NCBI RefSeq assembly: GCF_054482525.1
Contig: NZ_CM137006.1
Length of the DNA stretch: 64,000 nucleotides
Reading direction: 5' to 3' (one strand)
The position numbers were made by a program, and so were the translations under genes. Below the pieces are notes generated by a model, which worked only from the letters and a program-made list of their open reading frames with translations, did no database searches and was not told where the DNA came from. Of this stretch, positions 16,551 through 62,507 are shown one piece after another (the stretch's first letter is position 1; each line of letters starts with the position of its first letter).

Positions 16551-17036
16551 TCAGTCGATGATGCGCATAATGGCGTTGCATTCCGGATGCTGCAGGGCGT
16601 AATCCCGCAACCGATAATAATGGACCGTCATGGCATAATTCTCTGTACGACAGGCGTGATGACTGTACGCCATCAGACAGGCGGCAATGCCGGCGGCTTC
16701 CGGGCTCATTTCAGCGCGGTTGCCGTTCATGGCATTGAACAGTACCCATGTTTCGTCATCATCGTCATCCGGTTCGGGTACCATAAATGCCCCACCGTTG
16801 TTCAGGGTGTACAGATTCCAGATACCACCGCAGTAGTCTTCGCAAAGACGGTCCATCCAGCCGAAGACACGGGGCTCCAGGGTCACCCACTGTGGAATGA
16901 GGCCAAAATGTTGCGGCCAGAAACTGATGCGCTGTTCATCAGGGACGGGAGTGGCAACCAGTTGAGACTGGTTATTCCCTGGTGCAGTGGTTACGGAAAC
17001 AGAAGGCGTGGTGGAGCTATGCGAAAAGGTTGTCAT
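16551..17036 (-). CDS. antirestriction protein, KlcA/ArdB-like (YfjX/YafX-like)
   Basis: 161 aa; acidic stretch PEPDDDDDETW; conserved position upstream of radC-like gene. Confidence 0.65.
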   Translation of the reverse strand: MTTFSHSSTTPSVSVTTAPGNNQSQLVATPVPDEQRISFWPQHFGLIPQWVTLEPRVFGWMDRLCEDYCGGIWNLYTLNNGGAFMVPEPDDDDDETWVLFNAMNGNRAEMSPEAAGIAACLMAYSHHACRTENYAMTVHYYRLRDYALQHPECNAIMRIID

Positions 17037-45625: not shown

Positions 45626-46858
45626 TTACTTCAGACAGTGAGTTTCCCATTCCTTGACTGCAAATGTATCCATCATACCTGAAATATAGTCAACCACTGC
45701 TCGTTTTTTGCTGATTTCAAATATACAGGAATCTGGTTGGGGTAAGGTGAATTTAAGTTCAGGAGGCAGAAATTTATAATTCTCTCCTTCATTGTAAAAG
45801 TCATATAAATCCCTGATTATTTTATTTCCCCTGAACTCATAGGTGAGGATATTACGTTTTCGCATGATGACTTTAAAGAGAAGTTTTTTGAGTCCTTCGG
45901 ATAACGCATTCAGTTTCCCGAACCCCAGTTCCTGAAAACCATTCAGGTTCGTTACTACAGAAATATCTGCAACGAGGCGATTGACAATATTTGAAGTTAA
46001 CTCCTTGCGGAATATGATGGCAAATTCTTCTGAGGTTTTCAGTAAGTTAGCCTGAAAAGCGGTGTTTCTCGACTGAGTAACGATTTCCCTGAACTGTTCC
46101 CTCGCTCCCCGGAATTCGTCAGAAATCTGAAACTCATATTCAATATCTTCAATCGTGACCATGTTCCTGCTAAGGGCATCTTCCAGGTCATGCGCGGCGT
46201 AGGCAATCTCATCCGCGAGATCCATTATCTGCGCATCAATCGTTTTCTCTCCGGGATTCAGATCGAGCTGATTTTCAGCAAGCAGGTTAATGTAAAAATA
46301 GTAATCATCATCATAAATGAACTTGCCGGCAGTAGCTGCAGCGCGGGGGATGGGATACTTAACAACCGAAAGTAAACTACGGTGAGTCAGATTTAATCCG
46401 TTGCAGTATGAAAATTTCTTCTCCAGTTTTCTCAGGATACGTAGCGCCTGTGCATTACCTTCATAGCCGCCGATTTCTTCAGACAGTTCATTAAGCAGTT
46501 TTTCACCGGAATGACCGAAAGGAGGATTTCCGATGTCATGCGCCAGCGCTGCCAGTTCAACCACCACCGGGTTAATCAGTTTGAGGTCTGACGCGATACT
46601 TCGGGCGATCTGAGCAACCTCAAGACTGTGCGTTAATCTGTTTCTGTTGAATTTTTCAGGATCAATTTCAAAAAGTTGCATCTTTCCCTGCAGCCTGCGA
46701 AATGATGATGAATACAGAATACGCGCGTAATCCCGTTGATAATTATCCCGGCTTCTTGTTTCACCATCGGGGGACGGGTGCTCTCTGGTATCAGCAAGCG
46801 CACTGATAAGTTTTTGTTCCTGCTCTTGCGCAAATTCTTTTAATTCATTGCAGTACAT
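45626..46858 (-). CDS. HD-domain dGTPase-like deoxynucleoside triphosphate triphosphohydrolase
   Basis: Motifs YQRDYARILYSSSFRRLQGKMQLF, RLTHSLEVAQIARSIA, LAHDIGNPPFGHSGE typical of Dgt-family enzymes; start at second Met (RBS-like AAGGAAG upstream); AT-rich. Confidence 0.75.
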   Translation of the reverse strand: MYCNELKEFAQEQEQKLISALADTREHPSPDGETRSRDNYQRDYARILYSSSFRRLQGKMQLFEIDPEKFNRNRLTHSLEVAQIARSIASDLKLINPVVVELAALAHDIGNPPFGHSGEKLLNELSEEIGGYEGNAQALRILRKLEKKFSYCNGLNLTHRSLLSVVKYPIPRAAATAGKFIYDDDYYFYINLLAENQLDLNPGEKTIDAQIMDLADEIAYAAHDLEDALSRNMVTIEDIEYEFQISDEFRGAREQFREIVTQSRNTAFQANLLKTSEEFAIIFRKELTSNIVNRLVADISVVTNLNGFQELGFGKLNALSEGLKKLLFKVIMRKRNILTYEFRGNKIIRDLYDFYNEGENYKFLPPELKFTLPQPDSCIFEISKKRAVVDYISGMMDTFAVKEWETHCLK

Positions 46859-48337: not shown

Positions 48338-49318
48338 ATGACTCTTTTGGTAACGGCTGAGTGTGTTGACGATCTGATAAACGATGTTCATCAAGCTATC
48401 CTAGCGGATGGACTCAGTAACGATCCTACAAAAGGATCAACTCTAGAGATTCTTGGTGCCTATCTTGTCCTTACCGACCCCCGCCGAAGAATAAGTAGAA
48501 CAGAATCCCGAGGAAAACTAATTAGTTGCTTAGGTGAATTTCTGTGGTATCTCTCAGCTCAGAACGATCTTGAGTTTATAAAACACTTCATACCACGTTA
48601 CGCTGAATCCGCTGAGTCAGATGGGAAAATACATGGTGGTTACGGGCCACGGTTGTTTAATATGCGTGGTTTATATAATCAGCTAAAAAATGTTATCAAC
48701 CTTTTGCAGGAGAAAAAACCTACCAGACGTGCAGTAATACAGCTTTTCGATGCCTCAGACTTGGTGCCCTCAAAAACTGAACAGCGAGAATACGTAGATA
48801 TTCCTTGTACAATATCTATGCAGTTTATTGTCAGATGTGAAGAGCTGCATCTATTTGTTTGTATGCGTTCTAACGATGCCTTTATGGGGCTGCCTCATGA
48901 TGTATTTGCGTTCACGATGCTACAGGAATTAGTTGCCCGCTTGATAGGATGCGAATTGGGTCACTATCATCACTTTGTATCCAGCCTACATCTCTATAAA
49001 AATGATTTAGAAAAAGTGAAGGCTCTTCAGAAAGAGGGGTTCATGAGCACCCTACCAGTCATGGGATCGATGCCTGAAATGCATTCCTTAGATGATATCT
49101 TACCCCTGCTTGAGGCAGAAAAAGCTCTTCGAGAGAATAAGGAATTTGATATTGACACTACTTCCTTGAATGACTACTGGAAGGATTTATTGCGTATATT
49201 AAAAATCCACTTTTTGTTACGTTCACATACACCCAACCACAAAGGACTAGCCTTCCAAGAGTTGGCTGCAATGAAAAATCAGGAATATCGGTTTATTTTT
49301 GAAGGAAGACTACAATGA
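48338..49318 (+). CDS. thymidylate synthase-fold protein (ThyA / dNMP hydroxymethylase family) with ~90-aa C-terminal extension
   Basis: Aligns by eye to ThyA: GSTLEILGAYLVL, ISCLGEFLWYL, LYNQLKNVINLLQEKKPTRRAVIQLFDASDL, DIPCTISMQFIV (Cys at catalytic position), CMRSNDAFMGLPHDVFAF, HLYKNDL. Confidence 0.7.
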   Translation: MTLLVTAECVDDLINDVHQAILADGLSNDPTKGSTLEILGAYLVLTDPRRRISRTESRGKLISCLGEFLWYLSAQNDLEFIKHFIPRYAESAESDGKIHGGYGPRLFNMRGLYNQLKNVINLLQEKKPTRRAVIQLFDASDLVPSKTEQREYVDIPCTISMQFIVRCEELHLFVCMRSNDAFMGLPHDVFAFTMLQELVARLIGCELGHYHHFVSSLHLYKNDLEKVKALQKEGFMSTLPVMGSMPEMHSLDDILPLLEAEKALRENKEFDIDTTSLNDYWKDLLRILKIHFLLRSHTPNHKGLAFQELAAMKNQEYRFIFEGRLQ

Positions 49319-50259
49319 AAAGACATAATCAAATCAGTCAGCTGGTTAGTAATTTGCAAAATTTTAGCCGCAATGAACACAACCTAAATGGCCTAAGTTC
49401 TCCTGCCTGCTTTGATGTTTTAGCCTGTCAGATTATCGACAGTATACGTCGTATACGCTATGTGGAAACTCTTGCATTACGGACCGATTATATGACTCCG
49501 TTACGAAAAGAGCCGAATTCTGATGTTTTTGATCCTCTCCGCGCTGCCTGCCTTTATCTTCGTGACAACAATTACGATGAAGCCTGCTGGCTGGTTTTCC
49601 TTGCCACACATTTCGGCAAGAGTAACAAAACCGGCTGGATTTTGTGTCGAGATATATACAGTGGACTCGGTACACAAACGTGGACATGGGATACGATAAC
49701 TGATGACTTTGCTGCTTTTGAACAATGGTTCGCCAGCGTCTCTGATGAGTTGACAGCTAACAGTAGCCTAAGACAATATGGTAACCATCGGAAATATGAA
49801 ACGAAGAAATATCACTCTCGTCGTTCAATACCTGCGGTTTTTCGCTCTTACATCGGATTCATTGGTGCTACACACAGTCATGAGGCTAGGTTTGCAGAGG
49901 CCAAGAGCTTTTCATCTTCACCAGAATCTTTATTCGAACTATTGTATTCAGGGCTAAATGCCGTGATCTCATTTGGACGAACCGCAAAATTTGATTACCT
50001 AACTATGCTCAAGAAAACGGGACTTCTGGATGTAGAGCCGGGTCATGCTTTTCTGAATGGAGCAACCGGGCCCCTTCAAGGAAGCCGGCTACTTTTCAGC
50101 AATAGCCGGACTGCTGGTGACACAATAGACGTATTGAATGAAAAACTAGCTGACCTTGCGGCAATTATTCCTGCACCCTACTTGAGAATGCAGGTTATTG
50201 AAGATGCGTTGTGCAACTGGCAGAAATCACCTGACCGTTATGTCTATTTCGGCGGCTGA
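49315..50259 (+). CDS. uncharacterised protein co-operonic with the TS-fold gene
   Basis: 314-aa ORF overlapping upstream gene by 4 bp (ATGA); no motif I can assign. Confidence 0.5.
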   Translation: MKRHNQISQLVSNLQNFSRNEHNLNGLSSPACFDVLACQIIDSIRRIRYVETLALRTDYMTPLRKEPNSDVFDPLRAACLYLRDNNYDEACWLVFLATHFGKSNKTGWILCRDIYSGLGTQTWTWDTITDDFAAFEQWFASVSDELTANSSLRQYGNHRKYETKKYHSRRSIPAVFRSYIGFIGATHSHEARFAEAKSFSSSPESLFELLYSGLNAVISFGRTAKFDYLTMLKKTGLLDVEPGHAFLNGATGPLQGSRLLFSNSRTAGDTIDVLNEKLADLAAIIPAPYLRMQVIEDALCNWQKSPDRYVYFGG

Positions 50260-50261
50260 TA

Positions 50262-51344
50262 TCAGACGATATCTTCTTTACGGAATCTCACTTTAAACCG
50301 ATTAAGGTGAGAAAAAGGTATATTACCTTCATGCTGCAAATATCCCAGTACGATCCCTTTGGATACCCCCATTTTCCTAGCTAACCGGATGATCTCTTTC
50401 CAATGCCGGACACCATAGCGACTAAGTTGCTGCCGGTATTCTTCTGGGATAAGAACATCAACGGCAAATTTATCTGCTTCCTTTTCCTCTTCCGACGAAA
50501 GACTATCTTTACCTTCTACGCGAACTCGGACAGCTTCATGCAAGATGAGATGCCCAATCTCATGAAACAGCGTAAACCAAAAATGGTCATCGGTCAGATA
50601 ACGGAAACTCATGACTAGGGTTGCGCGATCTGGTGTAAAAAAGCAGGTAGCACCACTTGCCCGACATCCCTTTGGCGTTGGCAACACAACGAGAGAAACT
50701 CCAGCAGTGGCGAGAAGGTCGCGAATGTAAGGGATAAAAATCCTCATGTCGGGTTCATTTGTAGCTTTGCGCAGTTCTGGCAACAATGCTATCAGCCCCT
50801 CTTTATCCCATACAGCACAGTTTTGGTTTGAGGTAAGTTGTGCAGCCCTAGTCAGCCACACCAAATCGGCCATAGGCTCGGTTGCCAGATTAAGAGATTT
50901 ACGAAAAGCGACCAAAGGAGCATCTGACTGAATTTTATAAAAAAAATCATTGACGGAATTTATTCCGAAAAACGATAGGCAGTGCTGGAATTTACTTTCC
51001 CGAGTTGTAGTTTTGGGGATCCAACCAAACTCCATCATATCACGTACAGGCAATGATTCGAGCCAATCATTATTCACTTTCTCGAGGTATCCAATTTGCT
51101 GGCGATAAGCGACTTCGCGCTTGATCCAGAAGTCTGTCGATACGTTGAATAACTCCTCAAGCTTACAAGCCAGAGACTCATTGAGTCGGATTTTTCCTTC
51201 AAGAAGTTGCTGACCCCGGATAAGAGACAATCCAATCCTCTTACTCAGTTCTTCACCAGAAAGCCCATGTTCATCCATTAGATCTATAATTGTATCACCG
51301 GGTGGAGATACCCAGTCAGGCTGGAAGTCCTGCGTAACTATCAT
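50262..51344 (-). CDS. XRE-family HTH fused to ImmA/IrrE-type zinc metallopeptidase (HigA-like antitoxin/regulator)
   Basis: N-terminal HTH (IIDLMDEHGLSGEELSKRIGLSLIRGQQLLEG), C-terminal HEXXH (FTLFHEIGHLILHE); overlaps upstream small gene by 4 bp. Confidence 0.65.
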   Translation of the reverse strand: MIVTQDFQPDWVSPPGDTIIDLMDEHGLSGEELSKRIGLSLIRGQQLLEGKIRLNESLACKLEELFNVSTDFWIKREVAYRQQIGYLEKVNNDWLESLPVRDMMEFGWIPKTTTRESKFQHCLSFFGINSVNDFFYKIQSDAPLVAFRKSLNLATEPMADLVWLTRAAQLTSNQNCAVWDKEGLIALLPELRKATNEPDMRIFIPYIRDLLATAGVSLVVLPTPKGCRASGATCFFTPDRATLVMSFRYLTDDHFWFTLFHEIGHLILHEAVRVRVEGKDSLSSEEEKEADKFAVDVLIPEEYRQQLSRYGVRHWKEIIRLARKMGVSKGIVLGYLQHEGNIPFSHLNRFKVRFRKEDIV

Positions 51345-51667
51345 TTCACGTCACCTATGAACACTAACCGTATCCGGCTAACTCGGGACCAGTTAATTGT
51401 ATTATCTTGATTTTTGGGCTGAACTGTATTCCCACAGACAAATCCCATTTTTACATCACCGAGAATGGTAATTGTAATACACTCTTCCCCATCCTCAAAG
51501 CAGACCTCCGGCGAACCTACGGGCAACAGTAATATGTTGTCTGTCACGGAAAGATCGGAAAGTCGCGAGCGTAGTCTTGATGCCACTTTGTCACCAAAGA
51601 TCTCATTTGCCTCATGCATACTCTCGCAAATAGTCCTTAACTTCTTGCTTTGAAAGGTAATGAACAA
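51341..51667 (-). CDS. HigB-like (killer-protein family) type II toxin candidate
   Basis: 108 aa; N-terminal KKLRTICESMHEANEIFGDKVASRLRSRLSDL resembles HigB-family pattern; toxin-first gene order. Confidence 0.5.
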   Translation of the reverse strand: MFITFQSKKLRTICESMHEANEIFGDKVASRLRSRLSDLSVTDNILLLPVGSPEVCFEDGEECITITILGDVKMGFVCGNTVQPKNQDNTINWSRVSRIRLVFIGDVK

Positions 51668-51810
51668 AATTATCCACTTTTATTTTTCTTGGTTGCTACG
51701 TTTATAGCAAACTCAACGCTCATTCACAAAATGAGATGTAGCGAATTAATGGACTCTGCACATATTAAATGTTAATGATGGACTTAAAATCACGGATTCG
51801 TAAGGGAAAC

Positions 51811-52077
51811 ATGAAAGGTAAACATCAAGACACTAAAGCCCTGTCTGACGTGCTAGCGGAAATGCAACGGCAGGATGCCAAATGGGGGGCAGACCGTAAT
51901 CAAGATCCTTTTATCTGGGGAGCGATTCTCGGAGAAGAGGTGGGAGAATTTCATCAGGCTGTCCTCCATGATCGTTTTGGTGGTAAAGCAGCCGGTACCA
52001 GTAGGGAGGAAGCAGTACAAATTGCTGCTGTTGCACTGCAAATCATCGAATATTATGATCGCGTAATAGATCGATAA
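51811..52077 (+). CDS. small MazG-like NTP pyrophosphohydrolase-like protein (tentative)
   Basis: AILGEEVGEFHQAV and REEAVQIAAVALQIIEYY resemble the MazG EExGE helix pair; start at internal Met of ORF 51769..52077. Confidence 0.35.
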   Translation: MKGKHQDTKALSDVLAEMQRQDAKWGADRNQDPFIWGAILGEEVGEFHQAVLHDRFGGKAAGTSREEAVQIAAVALQIIEYYDRVIDR

Positions 52078-53495: not shown

Positions 53496-56400
53496 TTGAT
53501 GGAGCAGTCTCTCAATTTTGAAATGTTGCGCAGCCAGTGGCCGGAACTGGCTGAACTCGCGTGTATGGCGGAACGCTATGTTCACTCCGATCCGGAAAGT
53601 TGTCTGGTCAAGCTGCGCAACTACACCGAATTGATGGTGCGCTGGTTGTATCGTCAGGAGCGGTTGCCGGAAGGTATTAAGGCTAATCTTTACGATTTAA
53701 TGAATGCTGATGTCTTTACCAGCATGATGCCGGAAGCCATCATCATGAAAATGGATGCGCTGCGTATCCATGGCAACCGTGCCGCGCACGGCGGACGTAT
53801 CAAAGCTAAAGATACTTACTGGCTGCTCAAAGAAGCGTATTTGTTGGGAATTTGGCTGTATGTTCGCTACGCCCACGGTAATGTTGATGACTGCCCCAAA
53901 TTTACACTCCCTCCATTAACACAATCTTCAGGTCGTGCAGATGAAAAACGTCTGGAAGATGCAATCAGGGCTCAGGATGAAAGCCGTGAGCGCGAACTGG
54001 CGCTGCAACGCGCACTACAGCAAGAACAGGAAAAGGCCGAACACCTCACTCAACGCCTGAATGAAGCCAGAGCGCGTAACCAGCATGTTGCCGATATTCT
54101 CTCTATTGATGAAGCGGAAACCCGCCGTCGCCTGATTGACTCTCGCCTGCTTGCTGCTGACTGGAATGTAGGCGAAGGCCTTAAAAATACCGATCAGGTT
54201 ACGCAGGAACATCCCGTTAAAGAACAACCTACCGCGACCGGAGACGGTTATGCGGACTATGTCTTGTGGGATGAGGCACACAAACCGCTGGCGGTGGTGG
54301 AAGCAAAAAAAACCAGCGTCAATGCCGAGCAAGGACGAATTCAGGCCCGGCTGTATGCAGACTGGCTGGAAAAAGAATACGACCAGCGTCCGATCATCTT
54401 CTACACCAACGGCTATGATATCTGGCTGTGGGATGACCATAAAACTCATGGTTATCCCCCGCGTCGGGTGTTTGGCTTCTACAGCAAGGAAAGCCTGCAA
54501 TATCTTATTCAACAGCGTGAAACCCGTCTTCCGCTGAACAGTGTGCCGCACGTAAAAGATAACGAAGGTAAGGCCGTTGCCGGACGTTTGTACCAGCTTG
54601 AAACCATTGCCCGTGTCAGCGAGCGGTTTACCAACAAATACCGGCAATCGCTAATTGTTCAGGCTACGGGTACAGGCAAAACCCGCGTGGCAATAGCGCT
54701 AAGCAAACTAATGATTGATGCCCGCTGGGTAAAACGCGTCCTGTTTCTTTGCGACCGCAAGGAACTACGTAAACAGGCGGCGAATGCCTTTAATCAATTC
54801 ACCAATGAGCCGCTGTATGTGGTCGGGAAATCGAAAAAAGCAGACAGGCAGAATGCTAGGATCTACATCGCCACCTATCCTGGTATGATGAAAATCATGG
54901 ACCATTTCGATGTTGGTTATTTCGATTTGATCATCGCCGATGAATCCCATCGCTCTATCTACAACGTTTACGGCGATCTGTTTAAGTATTTTGATGCCCT
55001 CCAGATTGGCCTGACGGCCACGCCGATTGACATGGTGAGTAAAACCACTTTCGGCCTGTTTGGTTGTGAAGGACGTATTCCTACCGCCAACTACAGCCTG
55101 GAAGATGCCATCGCCGATAACAATCTGGTTCCCTATGAGGTTGTCACGCACACCACAGAATTCCTGCGCGAAGGCATCAAACGGGAGAAATTAAGCGACG
55201 CACAAATCCGCGAGCTGGAAGAACAAGGCATAGATCCCAATACGCTGGAGTTTGATGGCAAGGCGCTGGATGAGGCGATCTACAACAAAGACACCAACCG
55301 CTATATCCTGCGTAACCTGATGGAAAATGGCCTGAAAGATCGGGACGGCCAGTTGCCAGGTAAAACCATCATTTTCGCCCGTAACCACAAACACGCGCTG
55401 CTGTTGAATGAATTATTCGACGATATGTACCCGCAGTTTGCCGGGCGCTTCTGCCAGGTCATCGACAATTACGATCCCCGCGCCGAGCAACTGATTGATG
55501 ATTTTAAAGGGCTGGATGAAAGCACCAACAAAGAGCTGACCATCGCTATCTCCGTTGACATGCTCGATACCGGTATTGATGTCCCGGAAATTGTGAATCT
55601 GGTCTTTGCCAAACCGGTCAAATCAAAAGTGAAGTTCTGGCAGATGATTGGCCGTGGTACGCGCCTCTGTCCGGGGTTGTACGGTTACGACGATAACGGC
55701 AAACCTCTGGATAAACAGAAATTCCGCATTTTCGATCACTGGGGCAATTTTGAGTATCACGAACTGCATACCGAAGAGGCCGAAGTCACAGCGACAAAAT
55801 CGCTTGCACAAAAACGCTTCGAAGCGTGGGTTATGCTGGGGGCCGCTGCGCAACGTAAATTCGACAAACAGGCGGTGGATTTAGTTGCTCACCAGCTACG
55901 CGAGCAAATCAATGCACTGGATGAAAAGTCGATTGCCGTCCAGGAAAAGTGGCATCAAAAAGCGCAGTACAGCGATGAAAAAGTGCTGCGCCAGCTTTCC
56001 CCGAAAACACAGCAGGATTTGCTATCTGTCCTGGCCCCGCTGATGCAGTGGCTGGACGTGCGCGGGCAAAGCGACGCTATGCGCTTTGATATGGATATTC
56101 TGGCGGCGCAAACTGCCCGTTATACCAACCCGGAAGAGCTGGATGTGCTCTGGCCGGTCATCGTCGAAAAAGTGGAGCGCCTGCCGCCGCATTTGGCGCA
56201 GGTCCAACAGCAAGGACCGCGGATCAATCAGCTTCGTGATTTAGGCTGGTGGAAGCAGGCCAGCCTGGAAGAGCTGGAAGATATCCGCATTCATCTGCGC
56301 GGCATCATGCACCTGATGGAAAAAGACGCGACGCCGAAATTTGGTTCGATACAGGTGGATATTACCGAAGATGCGAACCTGATTCAGACGGAAAACCGCA

Positions 56401-56912
56401 AAACCAACATCCGCTCGATTGACTTCAAACTCTATCGCCAGCAGGTGCAGGGAGCGCTGGAGCCGCTGTTCCAGCAAAATCCGGTGCTGAAGAAAATCCG
56501 CAACGGCGAGCCTGTGACGCAAAGCGAGCTGGATGAACTGGCTAAACTGGTGCTGATCCAGAACCCTAACGTTGATATCCGGGCACTGAAAGAGTTCTAC
56601 CCGCAGGCGACCGCCAGCCTGGATAAACTATTGCGTACCATCATCGGGATGGACAGCGACGCGGTGGAAGTGCGCTTTGCTCAGTTCGCCGCTGATAACA
56701 GCCTGACCAGCCAGCAATTGCGCTTCCTGTCATTGCTGAAAAACCACATTCGCGATTACGGCACCATTGAAATGCGGCAGCTCTTTGAACAGCCTTTTAC
56801 GCATATCCACAACGAAGGCGTTACCGGTGTGTTCCCTGATATAGAGCAGATCGCCCGCCTACAAAAGATAGTCGAAGAGCTGGGTGTTGTGACCGACGCA
56901 GCAACGGTATAA
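53496..56912 (+). CDS. hsdR: type I restriction enzyme R subunit (HsdR)
   Basis: 1138 aa; helicase motifs QATGTGKTRVAIAL and IIADESHRS; N-terminal domain typical of HsdR. Confidence 0.9.
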   Translation: MMEQSLNFEMLRSQWPELAELACMAERYVHSDPESCLVKLRNYTELMVRWLYRQERLPEGIKANLYDLMNADVFTSMMPEAIIMKMDALRIHGNRAAHGGRIKAKDTYWLLKEAYLLGIWLYVRYAHGNVDDCPKFTLPPLTQSSGRADEKRLEDAIRAQDESRERELALQRALQQEQEKAEHLTQRLNEARARNQHVADILSIDEAETRRRLIDSRLLAADWNVGEGLKNTDQVTQEHPVKEQPTATGDGYADYVLWDEAHKPLAVVEAKKTSVNAEQGRIQARLYADWLEKEYDQRPIIFYTNGYDIWLWDDHKTHGYPPRRVFGFYSKESLQYLIQQRETRLPLNSVPHVKDNEGKAVAGRLYQLETIARVSERFTNKYRQSLIVQATGTGKTRVAIALSKLMIDARWVKRVLFLCDRKELRKQAANAFNQFTNEPLYVVGKSKKADRQNARIYIATYPGMMKIMDHFDVGYFDLIIADESHRSIYNVYGDLFKYFDALQIGLTATPIDMVSKTTFGLFGCEGRIPTANYSLEDAIADNNLVPYEVVTHTTEFLREGIKREKLSDAQIRELEEQGIDPNTLEFDGKALDEAIYNKDTNRYILRNLMENGLKDRDGQLPGKTIIFARNHKHALLLNELFDDMYPQFAGRFCQVIDNYDPRAEQLIDDFKGLDESTNKELTIAISVDMLDTGIDVPEIVNLVFAKPVKSKVKFWQMIGRGTRLCPGLYGYDDNGKPLDKQKFRIFDHWGNFEYHELHTEEAEVTATKSLAQKRFEAWVMLGAAAQRKFDKQAVDLVAHQLREQINALDEKSIAVQEKWHQKAQYSDEKVLRQLSPKTQQDLLSVLAPLMQWLDVRGQSDAMRFDMDILAAQTARYTNPEELDVLWPVIVEKVERLPPHLAQVQQQGPRINQLRDLGWWKQASLEELEDIRIHLRGIMHLMEKDATPKFGSIQVDITEDANLIQTENRKTNIRSIDFKLYRQQVQGALEPLFQQNPVLKKIRNGEPVTQSELDELAKLVLIQNPNVDIRALKEFYPQATASLDKLLRTIIGMDSDAVEVRFAQFAADNSLTSQQLRFLSLLKNHIRDYGTIEMRQLFEQPFTHIHNEGVTGVFPDIEQIARLQKIVEELGVVTDAATV

Positions 56913-56975
56913 TACGCACATGACAAGCCCCGGCAGCGGGGCTTTTGTATTTAAAACAGGATATAAAAGCTAACA

Positions 56976-58610
56976 ATGATCACTGGTGACTTAAAAAGTA
57001 AAATCGACGGCCTGTGGGAAGATTTCTGGGTGGGTGGTATCACCAACCCGCTGACCGTAATCGAACAGATCACCTATCTAATGTATTCCCGGATGCTGGA
57101 TACTCAGGAACAACGCGACGAGAAGCGTAAACAAATCGCGGGTATTGATTTTAAACCGCGTTTTGCACCAGAACAGCAGGAGTTCCGTTTCAGTCACTAT
57201 AGCAATCTTGGCTCGGATGAGATGATGGAAGTGGTGCGCGATGGTGTATTCCAGCATTTTCGTCAGCTCGGCCAGGCTGATGCGTCGAAGGTAACGCTGC
57301 TGGGCAACTTTATGAAAGATGCCCGTCTGGAGATTGTTAAGCCTTCATTGCTGACCAAAGCGGTTGAGGTGATCAAAAACCTGCCATTGGATCGCGGCGA
57401 CACCAAAGGCGACCTTTACGAATACCTGTTAAGCAAGCTGACCACTGCCGGAATCAACGGCCAGTTTCGCACACCGCGCCACATTATCCGCACGATGGTT
57501 GAAATGATGGAGCCGAACCCCGCCCGCGGCGAGACGATTTGCGATCCGGCCTGCGGCACCGGTGGCTTTCTGGCAACCAGCTATGAATATCTACTGGAGA
57601 AGTACAGCTCGCTGGAATCCATTCATACCGAGATTGGCACCAACGAACGTGGTGAGCTGGAAGAGCAAAAAATCTTTACCGGCGATCTGTTGACCCCGTG
57701 GCGTAACCATGTGGATAACAATATGTTCCACGGTTACGACTTTGACACCACAATGTTACGTATCGCCGCCATGAACCTGATTATGCACGGCGTGGAAGCG
57801 CCGGATATCCACTATCAGGACACCATGAGCCAGAGCTTCAGCACAAACTTCCCGCAGGCCAGTAAAAACGCTTTCAACCTGATTCTGGCAAACCCGCCGT
57901 TTACCGGTTCACTGGACGAAGAAGATATCGACTCCACGCTGTCGGCAATGGTGAAAACCAAAAAAACCGAACTACTGTTCCTGGCGCGTATTCTGCAAAT
58001 GCTGAAAGTGGGCGGGCGCAGTGCCACTATCGTGCCGCAGGGCGTGCTGTTTGGCTCCAGTAAGGCGCACCAGTCACTTCGCAAAACGCTGGTGGAAGAT
58101 AACCAACTGGAAGCGGTGATCAACCTGCCTTCCGGCGTATTTAAACCTTACGCTGGCGTGGCGACGGCGATCCTGATCTTTACCAAAGGCGGTCAGACGG
58201 ACGAGGTCTGGTTCTACGATCTGCAAAATGATGGCTACAGCCTGGATGACAAGCGTAACCCAATTAAAGACAACGACCTGCCGCATCTGCTGGCAAGCTG
58301 GAAGCATTACCGTACTTTACGCGGGCTGCCGGTTGATAACTTTATGGGTGAGAAGTTAGCCTCGTTGCTGAAACAGCAGTACCCGGAAGGGATTGATGCT
58401 GGCGTTGATTTTAAAGATCGCACTCAGGCGGCGTTTATAGTGCCAAAAGAAGATATTGCTGCCCAGAAATACGATCTCTCTATTAATCGTTATAAAGAAG
58501 TGGTGTATCAGGCTGAGGAGTATGAAGATCCGAAGGTGATATTGAAGCGGTTAAAAGATCTGGAAAAAGAGATTCTGGCGGATCTGGATGAGCTGGAGGG
58601 GATGCTGTGA
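56976..58610 (+). CDS. hsdM: type I R-M N6-adenine DNA methyltransferase subunit (HsdM)
   Basis: 544 aa; SAM motif [10 protein letters not shown] and catalytic NPPF. Confidence 0.9.
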
Positions 58611-59749
58611 AAAAAAATCAATTGGTCACACTTGGCAAACATATAGACATATTGTCCGGGTGTGCATTCCCTTCAAGTGGATTCAATAGGAACAATGGTG
58701 TTCCACTAATCCGTATTAGAGATATTCTTTCAGGAAAAACCGAAACTTATTATGAAGGCAGTTATGACTTAAAATATCTTATTAAAAAAGGTGATTTACT
58801 AGTTGGGATGGATGGAGATTTCAACCGTGAGTATTGGAAAGGTACTGATGCGTTGTTAAATCAACGGGTATGTAAAATTACGCCAAATCCTGAAACACTT
58901 GATAAAAATTTTCTATATCATTTCTTGCAAAAGGAATTGGATAAAATTCATGCTACAACAGATGTTGTGACTGTAAAACATTTGTCTGTAAAAAAGATAC
59001 AAGATATTAAAATTAGGCTTCCTTCATTAAAAGAACAAAAACGCATTGCTGCTATTCTTGATAAAGCTGATGCTATACGCCAAAAGCGCGAACAAGCCAT
59101 CAAACTGGCTGATGATTTTTTGCGGGCTAAGTTTCTAGAGATGTTTGGAACTCCTGCAAACAACATACATCGTTTCCCGAAAGGAACGATTCGCGACTTG
59201 GTTGATTCAGTAAATTATGGAACTTCAGCAAAAGCCTCTATTGATTCTGGTGAATATCCTATATTACGGATGGGTAATATAACATATCAAGGTAGGTGGG
59301 ATTTTACAGATTTAAAATATCTTGATCTCAGTGTAAAAGAAAAGGATAAATATTTGGTTAAAGAAGGCGATCTTCTTTTCAATCGTACTAACAGTAAGGA
59401 ACTTGTTGGTAAAACAGCTGTGTATGAAGAAGACAGGCCTATGGCATTTGCTGGATATTTAATCCGCGTTAGACCTAATTCTATCGGAAATAACTACTAT
59501 ATTTCAGGGTATCTTAATTCCATCCATGGCAAAATCACATTGATGAATATGTGTAAAAGTATTGTTGGCATGGCTAATATTAATGCACAGGAATTGCAGA
59601 ATATAGAGATATTAATCCCACCTAAGCATCTACAAGATGAGTATGAGATTATTTATAAAAAAATAAAAAAAGGACTAAGCATTTATGATAAAAGCGCAAT
59701 GCAACTTCAACTTTTAGCATCAAACCTATCGAATAAATATTTCATGTAA
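58607..59749 (+). CDS. hsdS: type I R-M specificity subunit (HsdS)
   Basis: 380 aa; two variable target-recognition regions separated by conserved LPSLKEQKRIAAILDKADAIRQK; 4-bp overlap with hsdM; AT-rich. Confidence 0.85.
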   Translation: MKKNQLVTLGKHIDILSGCAFPSSGFNRNNGVPLIRIRDILSGKTETYYEGSYDLKYLIKKGDLLVGMDGDFNREYWKGTDALLNQRVCKITPNPETLDKNFLYHFLQKELDKIHATTDVVTVKHLSVKKIQDIKIRLPSLKEQKRIAAILDKADAIRQKREQAIKLADDFLRAKFLEMFGTPANNIHRFPKGTIRDLVDSVNYGTSAKASIDSGEYPILRMGNITYQGRWDFTDLKYLDLSVKEKDKYLVKEGDLLFNRTNSKELVGKTAVYEEDRPMAFAGYLIRVRPNSIGNNYYISGYLNSIHGKITLMNMCKSIVGMANINAQELQNIEILIPPKHLQDEYEIIYKKIKKGLSIYDKSAMQLQLLASNLSNKYFM

Positions 59750-59757
59750 GGTTCATT

Positions 59758-61380
59758 ATGAAATTAACTAAACTTGTACTTGAAAATTTCAGATCTGTTA
59801 GAGAGCGGCAGGAAATTGATTTTGCACCTGTAACATTACTATTGGGGCCAAACAGCGCGGGCAAGACTACTATTTTAATTGCATTATTTTATCTTCAACA
59901 AATATTAGACCGTGAGCAGTGTGATCCTATATATTTAGAAGCTATGGGGAACAGGCGCATAGATGGATTTAGATCTCTAGTCCATAATGGGGATCTGAAT
60001 AATGTAATTACTATTGGTATCGGTTTCGATCCTGAACAAACAATAGGTGTAGAATATAAAACATATTTAGAAGAACTTGGTGATATTTTCGATATTCATT
60101 TTATAAAAATGAAAGACATTGCAGATGAAACTGAAAAGGTTTATGTAGAGTTTAAAATCGCATGGTCACAATTGCACAGAGCAGCATATATAAAGAACTA
60201 TGCTGTTTCTATAAATAATGAATTTATTGGAGAGCTAAGTAATGATGAGTATACTAAATCATCTTTAGTAAATAGATTGAACTTTACTCATCCGTTGCTT
60301 CTTCCTATTGATTATAATTTATGGCTTGAATCTATTGATAAGGAAGGATTAGATACGATTGCCAGTGAATTTGAAATATCTTTAAATGACTTAATTCCTG
60401 GCTTAGAACGTAATAAAAGTGGTGCAACAGAGCGAGTAAAAACTGTTGATTATATATTTGAAGAAGATAAAGAAAAACCAATGTTTCCTGTTTTTTTAAA
60501 GACGAAAATTGGTGCGTTACCTCAACTGGGAAGAACTGTTGATACAAATTTGAAAGTTTTTGATATATCCGAGCCAGTTGAGTATTTTAATCGAGATATA
60601 ATCACCAGAGTGCTAACGCAAGTTTTTACTTCTCCGTTAGATAAATTAAATAATTATTTAAAGGCTAGCGTATCTATTGGACCGTTAAGAATTATACCTG
60701 ATTCTTCATTTACGCCAAATCCTTATCCAGAACAAAATGGATGGTTTGATGGTACATCAGCATGGGATAAGCTGTGTTTATCTCAACAAAATGATAGTGA
60801 TTTGATTAAAAAAGTAAGTGATTGGTTTTCCAATAGAGATAAACTAAACACTAATTATAATATATTTAGTGGAGGAGAATTTGATATAAAAACCTCCCCT
60901 CAACTTTTAGGTCTGAAAGATAATGTTTACTTCTGTAAAATAGATTCAAGCCAAATGTTATTTCCAAATCAAGTCGGTGTCGGATTAACTCAGATAGCAC
61001 CTCTTATTATTGCAGCCAATATAGTTCAGGATGGATTAATTGCTATAGAGCAGCCTGAGCTACATATTCATCCCGCTTTACAACTCGCTGTAGGTGATCT
61101 GTTTACCCAATATCCCCTTGATGTTAAAAGACCTATGTTTTTAGTCGAAACACATAGTGAGCACATTTTGCTTCGAATTTTAAAAAGAATTAGACAAACA
61201 ACGGACAATGAATTACCTGAATCAAATTACCCAGTAAAACCTGATTTTATATCAGTGATCGTTTTCGAGGATAATAATGGTTCGACTGTTACTAGGAAAA
61301 TAGATATTACTGATGATGGTGACTTCAAACAAAAATGGCCCAAAGGTTTCTTCGAAGAAAGAAGGGGAGAGCTTTTTTAA
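59758..61380 (+). CDS. ABC/SMC-type AAA ATPase of anti-phage type (AbiLi/PtuA/AriA-like)
   Basis: 540 aa; N-terminal LENFRSV...LLLGPNSAGKTTIL, C-terminal IEQPELHIHP and LVETHSEHILLR; no nuclease domain visible; starts 9 bp after hsdS. Confidence 0.7.
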   Translation: MKLTKLVLENFRSVRERQEIDFAPVTLLLGPNSAGKTTILIALFYLQQILDREQCDPIYLEAMGNRRIDGFRSLVHNGDLNNVITIGIGFDPEQTIGVEYKTYLEELGDIFDIHFIKMKDIADETEKVYVEFKIAWSQLHRAAYIKNYAVSINNEFIGELSNDEYTKSSLVNRLNFTHPLLLPIDYNLWLESIDKEGLDTIASEFEISLNDLIPGLERNKSGATERVKTVDYIFEEDKEKPMFPVFLKTKIGALPQLGRTVDTNLKVFDISEPVEYFNRDIITRVLTQVFTSPLDKLNNYLKASVSIGPLRIIPDSSFTPNPYPEQNGWFDGTSAWDKLCLSQQNDSDLIKKVSDWFSNRDKLNTNYNIFSGGEFDIKTSPQLLGLKDNVYFCKIDSSQMLFPNQVGVGLTQIAPLIIAANIVQDGLIAIEQPELHIHPALQLAVGDLFTQYPLDVKRPMFLVETHSEHILLRILKRIRQTTDNELPESNYPVKPDFISVIVFEDNNGSTVTRKIDITDDGDFKQKWPKGFFEERRGELF

Positions 61381-62276
61381 TGTTCTACGAATGCGCCATT
61401 TCACCAGAGGCTTTGTTTGAGATCGCAATTGATCGGAGAAATTATCGTGACTTCATAAAAGGATTTTCTACGGGCGGTAACTTTCTCTATAGTGAATTAC
61501 CAAAGCTGAAGAGAAATAAAAAACAATTGCTTGGGCTATTAAATGCTAATCATAGTGAACTTCAAAAAAAACGATTAGAGGACCTTATTATTTTTTTGAA
61601 AAATAATAAGGTTAGTAGGGTTTATGATTATGTTGGTGACATGTCATGGTCAGATAACATCTCTGCTGTAAATCGAATTGAACAATTTGATCATGTAGTG
61701 AGTTCTACTCCTTGTGATAACCTTGATGTAACTAATATAGATGATTTCTTTGGGTTAAATTATGCTCGGCAAAAAATTGTTGCTAGAATTGCTGAGGATA
61801 TGATATCTATAATCTCACGCTTATTAAAAACATCAGAGCATATTATTATAGTTGACCCATACTTTAGTGACAAACAAAGATGGTGGAATGTATTTATTTC
61901 ATTACTTAGCGTTAGTGCTAATAACTCTTATAAAAAAAATTTAAAGATAGATGTTATATTTGATGGGAGTAAAGAAAACTCCCCAACGGTGAATTATTTG
62001 GCTAATAAGTTGAACCGCGAAAACCTTGTCTTTCCAGACGATTTTAAATTATCAGTAACATTTAAGTCTTTAACTTCTCGCGAGGGTAATGAATGTCTGC
62101 ATAATAGATATGTTCTTTCTAATGTTGCTGGAGTTTGTTTCATGCATGGTTTAGATGAGGGAGAAGGAACGGATGATGTCTCAATTTTGTCGAAAGAGGG
62201 ATATAATAAAAGATGGGAACATTACACTACGAATAATGTTTTTGATTTAATAGAAGAGCGTGAAGTTATATGTTAA
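61380..62276 (+). CDS. uncharacterised partner of the ATPase (candidate effector)
   Basis: ATG overlaps ATPase stop (TAATG); alternative in-frame start at 61335; 298 aa, AT-rich, no assignable motif. Confidence 0.5.
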   Translation: MFYECAISPEALFEIAIDRRNYRDFIKGFSTGGNFLYSELPKLKRNKKQLLGLLNANHSELQKKRLEDLIIFLKNNKVSRVYDYVGDMSWSDNISAVNRIEQFDHVVSSTPCDNLDVTNIDDFFGLNYARQKIVARIAEDMISIISRLLKTSEHIIIVDPYFSDKQRWWNVFISLLSVSANNSYKKNLKIDVIFDGSKENSPTVNYLANKLNRENLVFPDDFKLSVTFKSLTSREGNECLHNRYVLSNVAGVCFMHGLDEGEGTDDVSILSKEGYNKRWEHYTTNNVFDLIEEREVIC

Positions 62277-62507
62277 GTATTTCCCTTACTGTTTTCAATT
62301 AAATCCTACAAACTTATTAGGACCCTTTAAAATTTATTCAACACGCCAATAAAAAATCTAATTCTATTAATCTTGACCTGGTCTATCAAAATGATAGACC
62401 AGGCTTCTGTTATCTACATTACTTCTAGTGAAATAGCCAACCAATCGTCCCTATAAGGCAGGTTAAATAGTTTTAATTTAGCAAATTTGATAAACAACTC
62501 ACTCGCC

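Follow-up and report, generated by a model that had tools for sequence, protein, structure and literature searches.

Two adjacent genes that follow a complete type I restriction-modification (R-M) operon on an Escherichia coli island are the subject of this work. They lie at 59758..61380 and 61380..62276 (+ strand) of a 64,000-nucleotide stretch of contig NZ_CM137006.1 (RefSeq assembly GCF_054482525.1), called the window throughout, and encode an NsnB-like OLD/ABC ATPase of 540 aa and a partner protein of 298 aa. We propose, with a probability of about 0.6, that the pair is an autonomous two-component defence module, an ATPase-gated nuclease of the phospholipase D (PLD) superfamily, which occupies a cargo slot of the R-M operon and whose nearest known counterpart is the NsnB-NsnC half of the Menshen system. 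Such a module would probably act as an abortive or 'backup' anti-phage defence. The initial annotation, which placed a P-loop ATPase just after hsdS and a second gene overlapping its stop codon, was accurate in its coordinates: the hsdS gene runs to 59749 and the start codon of the ATPase follows at 59758, with 8 intergenic nt in between, and the ATPase TAA and the partner ATG (61380) share one base (tttTAATG). A 313-aa open reading frame (ORF) from 61335 was rejected as the partner, as the NCBI annotation pipeline (PGAP) and all homologues use the 298-aa start, beginning M-[FLI]-Y-E. In an identical strain, RefSeq names the two products 'AAA family ATPase' and 'hypothetical protein'.

Our searches showed that the best PADLOC match of the ATPase is PDC-M55A (E = 1.4e-40), followed by NsnB (3.2e-37), HEC-03 (6.7e-25) and AriA (5.5e-22). 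The alignment with AriA covers residues 1-471, and that with the NsnB profile reaches position 335 of 345; AbiLi is matched at 2e-10 only, and the PtuA matches are confined to the P-loop (residues 1-46). Thus the earlier view that this class of ATPase pairs with nuclease effectors in anti-phage systems is borne out; the nearest kin are Menshen NsnB and PDC-M55A, and not the AbiL, Septu and PARIS that the initial annotation cited. Pfam returned AAA_15 in two halves, a weak C-terminal DUF3696 (7.7e-3) and weak AAA_21/AbiEii-type matches. Besides the Walker A GPNSAGKT (G30-T37, 59845-59868) and the H-loop ETHSEH (residues 464-469, 61147-61164), both of which the initial annotation had pointed out, the protein carries GPLR (residues 308-311) as a substitute for the Q-loop, with an Arg (R311) in place of Gln, a GxG signature that replaces SGG (G407-Q412, 60976-60993), a Walker B of sequence IEQPE (E431-Q432-P-E434, 61048-61059) and a DUF3696-type C-terminal tail (61240-61377) with an invariant WPxGFFxER..EL. 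In an alignment of 42 orthologues drawn from related loci, the Walker A, GPxR, G407xG409xSQ, the E-Q-P-E Walker B, ETHSEH and the WPxGFFxER tail are all conserved. An Arg for the Q-loop Gln, GxG for SGG, a non-DE Walker B and a DUF3696 helix are the peculiarities described for NsnB (PMC12065111). By its PADLOC matches and these motifs, the ATPase is a member of the OLD/ABC ATPase clade with a DUF3696 tail and NsnB-type motifs.

The partner gave little in direct family searches: the best Pfam match was nSTAND3 at 0.079, PHROGs gave no match, NCBIfam nothing better than E ~0.016, and a sequence search of the PDB nothing better than E ~1. A word-indexed homologue search recovered enterobacterial copies only, at identities of at least 74%. 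A HMMER search of 1.84 billion representatives recovered 1007 clusters (50% identity) at E <= 1e-3, and 371 at E <= 1e-10; the members are nearly all full-length, of about 300 aa, and all unannotated, and every relative in the AlphaFold database is an 'Uncharacterized protein'. No homologues were found in phage records, and none of the papers searched mentions the two RefSeq protein accessions of the pair. An AlphaFold2 model built from a 99-sequence alignment (22-38% identity) reached a pLDDT (predicted local distance difference test score) of 97.2; a model from a shallow 11-sequence alignment, with a pLDDT of 48.6, was discarded. The retained model has an N-terminal PIN-like domain (about residues 1-135, 61380..61784) and a C-terminal domain of the PLD superfamily, MIT_C/PB-PLD1-like (61785..62276). 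The structural matches of the C-terminal domain are the MIT_C domain of MITD1 (10.2, with the highest identity, 16%), Nuc (9.8), Zucchini (9.5), NgoAVII (8.9) and BfiI (8.4).

Conservation within the family distinguishes the two domains. In the PIN-like domain E4, an acidic residue at 8, R65, R80, W90 and R136 are conserved; since only E4 and the acidic residue 8 are kept, the domain lacks the D-E-D-D tetrad. In the PLD domain, the acidic residue at 159 is conserved in 99% of the sequences, H241 in 98%, N or D at 242 in 93% and R243 in 100%, and a D, E or N stands at 248 (codons of D159 at 61854-61856 and of H241-N242-R243 at 62100-62108). The resulting HxR(x)4[D/E/N] is a variant of the HKD motif, with Arg for Lys, and occurs once per chain. 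Profile matches in the same register, all of them weak, were found for Pfam MIT_C (three of the 99 family members, best 1.8e-3), for PADLOC NsnC (3e-3 and 5e-3) and for the C-terminus of BrxL (one family member, 6e-4). We therefore describe the partner, as modelled, as the fusion of a PIN-like domain that looks inactive with a PLD/MIT_C-like domain whose D...HxR(x)4[D/E/N] site is conserved. An 'inPIN + PB-PLD1' architecture has been described in silico in a subset of Menshen NsnC proteins, in which PB-PLD1, one of 15 NsnC effector families, is related to MIT_C and to BrxL C-termini and is recognised by an HDR motif and by an acidic residue that follows β2 (PMC12065111). The modelled partner shares this plan, a likeness drawn from the published description of PB-PLD1 NsnC and the weak profile matches. 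The initial annotation could not assign the partner to the HNH, DUF4435/Toprim or RloB families and considered that it may be a new effector variant; profiles and fold agree that it belongs to none of these, but it is not unplaceable, since the combination of a PIN-like and a PLD domain is known for NsnC.

The Menshen system (NsnA-NsnB-NsnC; Millman 2022; Li et al. NAR 2025, PMC12065111) is thus the closest point of comparison. The ATPase has the unusual motifs and the DUF3696 tail of NsnB in addition to the profile match, and the partner has the two-domain plan of NsnC, an inactive PIN-like domain and an MIT_C-like PLD domain with its acidic residue after a β-strand and H-[N/D]-R. The ATPase-then-effector order, the tight coupling of the two genes and the frequent adjacency to R-M are also common to both, and 27.9% of Menshen operons lie next to R-M, BREX or methylases. 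There are differences as well. In Menshen, NsnA, which combines ParB-DUF262 and ParBDB, sits upstream of NsnB, a position taken here by hsdRMS or by an RtcR-like σ54 activator; the ATPase exceeds the NsnB profile by about 200 aa and has bigger inserts; and the partner matches the NsnC profile at E ~3e-3 only. An NsnA/DUF262 sensor was sought beside members of the family and was found in none of about 60 loci, and none is annotated in the source region of the window. The pair is homologous to the NsnB-NsnC half but, since NsnA, the third defining gene, is absent, it is not Menshen proper.

Other systems share parts of this organization. HEC-03 and PDC-M55, a PADLOC candidate, are likewise cassettes of an OLD/ABC ATPase and an effector, embedded in Hma, BREX, DISARM and type I R-M loci. 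HEC-03, an ABC ATPase with a PIN protein, protects E. coli and requires both genes (Payne et al. 2024, 10.1101/2024.01.29.577857). Its effector, however, is a VapC-like PIN without a PLD domain, and the partner has no HEC-03 match at E <= 1; PDC-M55 is made up of three families (FAM_00005>>FAM_02935>>FAM_00004; 10.1101/2024.01.29.577857), and the partner matches none of its components (E > 1). PARIS, Septu, Gabija and AbiL/RloAB follow the same logic of an ABC ATPase sensor or scaffold with a nuclease effector, and RloAB are found within type I R-M loci. The effectors of PARIS, Septu and AbiL are Toprim/DUF4435, HNH or RloB proteins, in contrast to the PIN-like and PLD domains of the partner, and AriA and PtuA lack the DUF3696 tail that the ATPase has. 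PrrC in EcoprrI, together with RloC, offers the paradigm of an R-M guard, an accessory P-loop protein whose gene lies within a type I R-M operon and which becomes active once restriction is inhibited, but PrrC is a single polypeptide in which the ATPase is fused to the anticodon nuclease, lies between hsdS and hsdR and is unrelated to the partner in sequence or fold.

MADS brings together a methyltransferase and a specificity subunit of R-M-like type, the AAA/ABC ATPase MAD3 and the separate nuclease MAD4, and the last two both contribute to defence. MAD2, MAD5 and MAD3 are the best NCBIfam matches of HsdM, HsdS and the ATPase, at 120.8, 49.3 and 29.6 bits against curated cut-offs of 720, 400 and 420, respectively. 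MADS differs in that MAD4 is DUF4276/Toprim-like, in that equivalents of MAD4 and MAD6-8 are absent from the operon studied here, and in the classical HsdR that this operon possesses. By effector family and by curated cut-offs, PARIS, Septu, AbiL, HEC-03 and MADS were rejected as identities for the pair. The C-terminal domain of BrxL and the MIT_C of MITD1 belong to the same PLD sub-family as the C-domain of the partner, in domain contexts unlike that of the partner: BrxL is a Lon-like/MCM-like protein, and MITD1 an ESCRT-III-binding protein.

The pair is present, at a coverage of at least 80%, in 250 of 5426 complete E. coli genomes (4.6%), almost always at identities of at least 99%, and the hsdRM backbone in 409 of the same 5426. 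In close relatives (Salmonella, Citrobacter, Kosakonia and metagenomic sequences) the order hsdR-hsdM-hsdS-ATPase-partner is kept, at the edge of an island with a P4-type integrase. One genome per species was scanned with a 16-sequence partner alignment, which gave 51 loci from many phyla (here and below, individual loci carry the prefix L where they must be told apart); neighbours were screened by phmmer with the five proteins of the window. In all 45 loci where DNA upstream of the partner is available, the gene directly 5' of it codes for an ATPase homologue, and the stop and start codons of the two usually overlap. The claimed linkage to R-M holds well beyond the enterics: 32 loci are informative, in that their upstream sequence extends over at least 8.8 kb, and 24 of these have an hsdS gene ahead of the pair on the same strand, generally accompanied by hsdM and hsdR; they come from Gamma- and Deltaproteobacteria, Myxococcota, Planctomycetota, Acidobacteriota, Latescibacterota and others. 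The hsdS stop is at most 45 nt from the ATPase start, or overlaps it, in 14 loci, and an Azotobacter plasmid has the same gene order as the window. The HsdR proteins linked to the pair belong to at least two families (E ~0 and ~1e-77). In some loci other defence cassettes stand between hsdS and the ATPase: Avs4 (3e-163; L026 3090-8189), E1/E2-JAB with PDC-S04 (L014 4757-7838), PDC-S08 (~1e-130; L009 7090-8085 and L012 7269-8240) and PDC-S32 (L030 6647-7630).

A second type of neighbourhood was found in at least 10 loci, in which an RtcR_PspF2-type σ54 activator, with CARF, AAA+ and helix-turn-helix (HTH) domains (E ~1e-150 to 1e-200), replaces hsdRMS beside the ATPase (L010 2813-4388; L048 6543-8172; L055 6386-7977; L031 3250-4798; L022 3-1160; L052 6213-8367; L032 5330-8088; L061 201-1793; and, divergently oriented, L019 6507-8292 and L027 6364-8256). 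Just 5' of the ATPase, near-consensus TGGCAC-N5-TTGC σ54 elements are present in L019, L022, L027, L031, L048 and L055, and degenerate ones in L010 and L061; TGGCACGACAACTGCA and TGGCACGCCCCTTGCT are examples of these promoters. The σ54 promoters together with the RtcR-like activators imply that in those genomes a ligand gates the σ54-dependent induction of the module. In L062 the pair is accompanied by neither R-M nor an RtcR-like gene. In a neighbour-joining tree of the ATPases, a rough one without support values that we use qualitatively, R-M-linked and RtcR-linked copies are interspersed. Another arrangement was seen in L064 (5138-6895; plasmid p96k of Deinococcus sp. AJ005), where a 585-aa Piwi-domain protein (Pfam Piwi 1.2e-4 and NCBIfam argonaute 7e-6, both sub-threshold) is encoded directly upstream of the ATPase and partner homologues; judging from these matches, this may be a version of the module linked to a prokaryotic Argonaute.

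The two genes are real genes under purifying selection: compared with the Salmonella, Citrobacter and third enteric (L005) loci, the ratio of nonsynonymous to synonymous substitution rates (dN/dS) is 0.11-0.20 for the ATPase and the partner. The corresponding value for hsdRM is 0.02-0.04, and the pair evolves 5-8 times faster than hsdRM. Among the enterics, identities are 95-98% for HsdR and HsdM, 58-94% for HsdS (368-397 aa long in close relatives), 77-91% for the ATPase and 76-87% for the partner. Within the same pair of genomes, the synonymous divergence (dS) of the ATPase and of the partner is 0.25 and 0.84 with L002, and 0.97 and 0.40 with L003; this 2-3-fold gap indicates that alleles of both genes have been reshuffled by recombination. 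The hsdS alleles have likewise been reshuffled on a conserved hsdRM backbone. Further, two E. coli operons whose hsdRM backbones are about 96% identical at the nucleotide level carry other genes after hsdS, in one case a gene for a 228-aa hypothetical protein, after which Dsr1 is encoded on the opposite strand (L067 11335-15853), in the other a gene for a 582-aa carbon-nitrogen hydrolase family protein and an 88-aa ORF (L068 11481-13488). Because backbones this similar carry unrelated genes there, the position after hsdS is a variable cargo slot.

We favour an autonomous module because of the R-M-free contexts, the several HsdR families and the cargo swaps in E. coli. In single-motif PLD enzymes such as Nuc, NucT, BfiI and Zucchini, two PLD domains pair to build the active site, and, as each chain of the partner has a single HKD-like motif, two of its PLD domains would also have to pair. 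In our model, oligomers of the ATPase would hold the partner with their C-terminal tails on its PIN-like domain, as AlphaFold 3 predicts for NsnB4-NsnC2, where the inPIN domain is gripped by two DUF3696 tails. On sensing a phage cue, the ATPase would change its binding or hydrolysis of ATP and, by analogy with PARIS and Septu, release or re-orient the partner, and the activated partner dimer would then degrade nucleic acid, either DNA or RNA, and stop the infection. Co-transcription with hsdMS would place this second layer at the very point where evasion of type I restriction is likely, and physical coupling to the R-M enzyme would not be required.

Several points weigh against this proposal. 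The defence role of the pair, its toxicity, its substrate and its trigger are all inferred. PADLOC does not call the pair a system, as the partner matches no model significantly. The Glu-to-Gln change in the Walker B motif suggests that ATP hydrolysis may be slow or absent. The MIT_C domain of MITD1, to which the partner comes closest by identity among solved structures, is a membrane-binding, non-catalytic PLD fold, so that the partner need not be an active nuclease. The E. coli/enterobacterial clade keeps the core D159, H241, N242 and R243 but departs from the family elsewhere, with S8 (D/E in 90%), F35 (R in 90%), I15 (W in 72%) and N248 (D/E in 81%), and the deviations at S8, F35 and N248 count among these points. 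Finally, a 75% linkage to type I R-M across phyla exceeds what would be expected of a fully independent module.

Other readings wire the pair to the type I enzyme. In one of them, which we hold to be doubtful though worth entertaining, the five genes would form a composite system, with the type I complex replacing NsnA as the sensor of DNA or infection for an NsnB/NsnC-type arm, and with a CARF/σ54 input in other lineages. If so, the restriction status of the cell, or its inhibition by anti-restriction proteins, would be transduced directly into activation of a PLD nuclease, and the effector arm would be a portable 'output module' that accepts different sensors. We consider it unlikely that the pair is instead a PrrC-like guard, coupled physically or functionally to the R-M enzyme, which would remain silent as long as HsdM2S/HsdR is active and in which inhibition by an Ocr-, ArdA- or Stp-like protein would lead the ATPase to free the PLD nuclease and abort the infection. 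In essence, this is the R-M-linked backup that the initial annotation put forward. Precedents exist, as PrrC, embedded in EcoprrI, is activated by T4 Stp, and AriA of PARIS senses Ocr (PMC12707154; PMC12839542), and the hsdS genes upstream of the pair in three quarters of the informative loci, the 14 close junctions and the lack of a terminator-like site between hsdS and the pair in the window all fit a guard. The necessity of such wiring is, however, weakened by the occurrence of the module without adjacent R-M, alone or under RtcR-like σ54 control, and by the E. coli backbone that exchanges the pair for unrelated cargo; moreover, the linked HsdR proteins come from at least two families, and in some loci further defence cassettes stand between hsdS and the pair. 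We give little weight to a MADS-like second restriction arm, in which HsdM and HsdS would take the place of NsnA in distinguishing self from non-self and the pair would be an extra nuclease acting on unmethylated DNA. For it speak the five-gene order kept across phyla, with foreign cassettes inserted between hsdS and a pair that stands like a bookend, and the MAD2, MAD5 and MAD3 matches, together with the requirement for mad3 and mad4 in MADS, where mad5 can be deleted only with mad2 or mad3 (10.1101/2023.03.30.534895), and the share of Menshen operons beside R-M, BREX or methylases. Yet an intact HsdR is already there, the MADS scores fall far under their cut-offs and MAD6-8 are absent, the R-M-free contexts and the cargo swapping in E. 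coli tell against it as well, and the ATPase and partner alleles recombine independently of hsdRM.

The remaining two explanations dispense with defence. It seems to us very unlikely that the pair is not primarily anti-phage and serves instead either to stabilise the island, as a toxin-antitoxin-like addiction module, or as a nuclease of a stress or RNA-damage response. Canonical RtcR controls RNA repair genes, and the presence directly upstream, in at least 10 loci, of RtcR-type CARF/σ54 activators together with σ54 promoters close to consensus could be read in this way, as could the weak AAA_21/AbiEii-type matches of the ATPase and the location on an integrase-bearing island. On the other hand, the neighbours are overwhelmingly defence genes (type I R-M, Avs4, CBASS-like E1/E2-JAB, PDC candidates, Dsr1 and TIR), the validated relatives of the ATPase (Menshen, HEC-03 and PARIS) are all anti-phage, and a small antitoxin-like gene is absent. 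Hardly credible, in turn, is the idea of decaying or non-functional passenger genes: the low GC content, the adjoining integrase remnant and the few conserved positions at which the E. coli clade is off consensus might suggest it, but 250 E. coli genomes carry the ORFs intact, at identities of at least 99%, the dN/dS values indicate constraint, and D159, H241, R243 and all ATPase motifs are kept.

As for the locus itself, the type I R-M operon is complete, as the initial annotation stated, with hsdR, hsdM and hsdS all intact. The hsdR gene (53499..56912, +; ORF, RefSeq/PGAP and NCBIfam) codes for a 1137-aa EcoAI/type IB-like restriction subunit (NCBIfam PRK11448 1.5e-99 and EcoAI family 3.4e-68) that PGAP names 'DEAD/DEAH box helicase family protein'; in Pfam, its orthologues have a DUF4145 N-terminus and an EcoEI_R_C C-terminus. 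The hsdM gene (56976..58610, +) encodes a 544-aa type I methyltransferase subunit, and hsdS (58607..59749, +), with a 4-nt overlap with the hsdM stop, a 380-aa specificity subunit. Of the two strongest terminator-like hairpins, one lies between hsdR and hsdM (56925..56944, +; 8-bp stem, 6 GC, T-tail), which is a consensus match only, and the other, the strongest of the region, with a 12-bp stem, about 100 nt after the partner stop (62377..62403, +); the scan of the region gave no such site between these two, and hence none between hsdS, the ATPase and the partner. The number of sites in the promoter and terminator scans is not above shuffle expectation, and the hairpins are used by position only. 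The 62377-62403 hairpin is probably the end of an hsdM-hsdS-ATPase-partner transcript. The AT-richness noted for the ATPase and partner genes is real (GC content 0.33 each), with values of 0.34 for hsdS, 0.51 for hsdR and hsdM and 0.476 for the window; as hsdS is equally AT-rich, the compositional break begins at hsdS and not at the ATPase gene.

The window is E. coli chromosomal DNA, its pair region is 100% identical to that of many strains, such as W2-5, and the locus lies on an integrase-bearing island, beside an integrase remnant. Upstream of the R-M operon, 50262-51667 (-) codes for a 360-aa protein with an HTH and an HEIGH metallopeptidase (ImmA/IrrE-like; PD-Lambda-2_B 8.7e-30, with weaker matches to CapP and RmrA), and a 108-aa ORF overlaps the start of this gene; this may be a further defence or regulatory module. 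The same island holds genes of a nucleotide-metabolism type at 45626-46858 (-), ~48340-50259 (+) and 51769-52077 (+), which RefSeq describes in the identical strain as dGTPase-family, thymidylate synthase followed by a 314-aa protein, and MazG-like; genes of this type are often defence- or phage-related. The relatives in Salmonella, Citrobacter and other enterics have a divergent gene for a TIR-domain protein of about 325 aa (TIR_2 + Y4lF) immediately 5' of hsdR (L002 914-1897, L003 959-1930 and L005 866-1843, -), where the window has transposase remnants instead. Farther away, ~12000-45000 is at least 99.4% identical to E. coli W2-5 and is a CP4-57-like integrative element, with genes for an 'antirestriction protein' (16551-17036, -), CbtA/CbeA, RadC and ParDE. 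A block for antibiotic resistance at ~35-43 kb comprises sul2, aph(3'')-Ib, aph(6)-Id, tet(A), floR and ISCR2. The first ~11 kb of the window have no collinear alignment with W2-5.

What does this pair mean for the biology of its family? It extends known biology and introduces no new principle, because an ABC ATPase with a nuclease as a backup in R-M-like loci has already been published. The module is nevertheless widespread yet unannotated, with about 1000 partner clusters in many phyla and a presence in 4.6% of complete E. coli genomes. It is a natural E. coli case of the transducer-effector half of Menshen without the DUF262 sensor, and bears on how Menshen-type ATPases are triggered and on how MIT_C-like PLD domains, which also occur in BrxL, act. 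The two alternative upstream partners, type I R-M and the RtcR-like CARF/σ54 activator, make the question of a guard versus a free-standing sensor testable in a tractable host.

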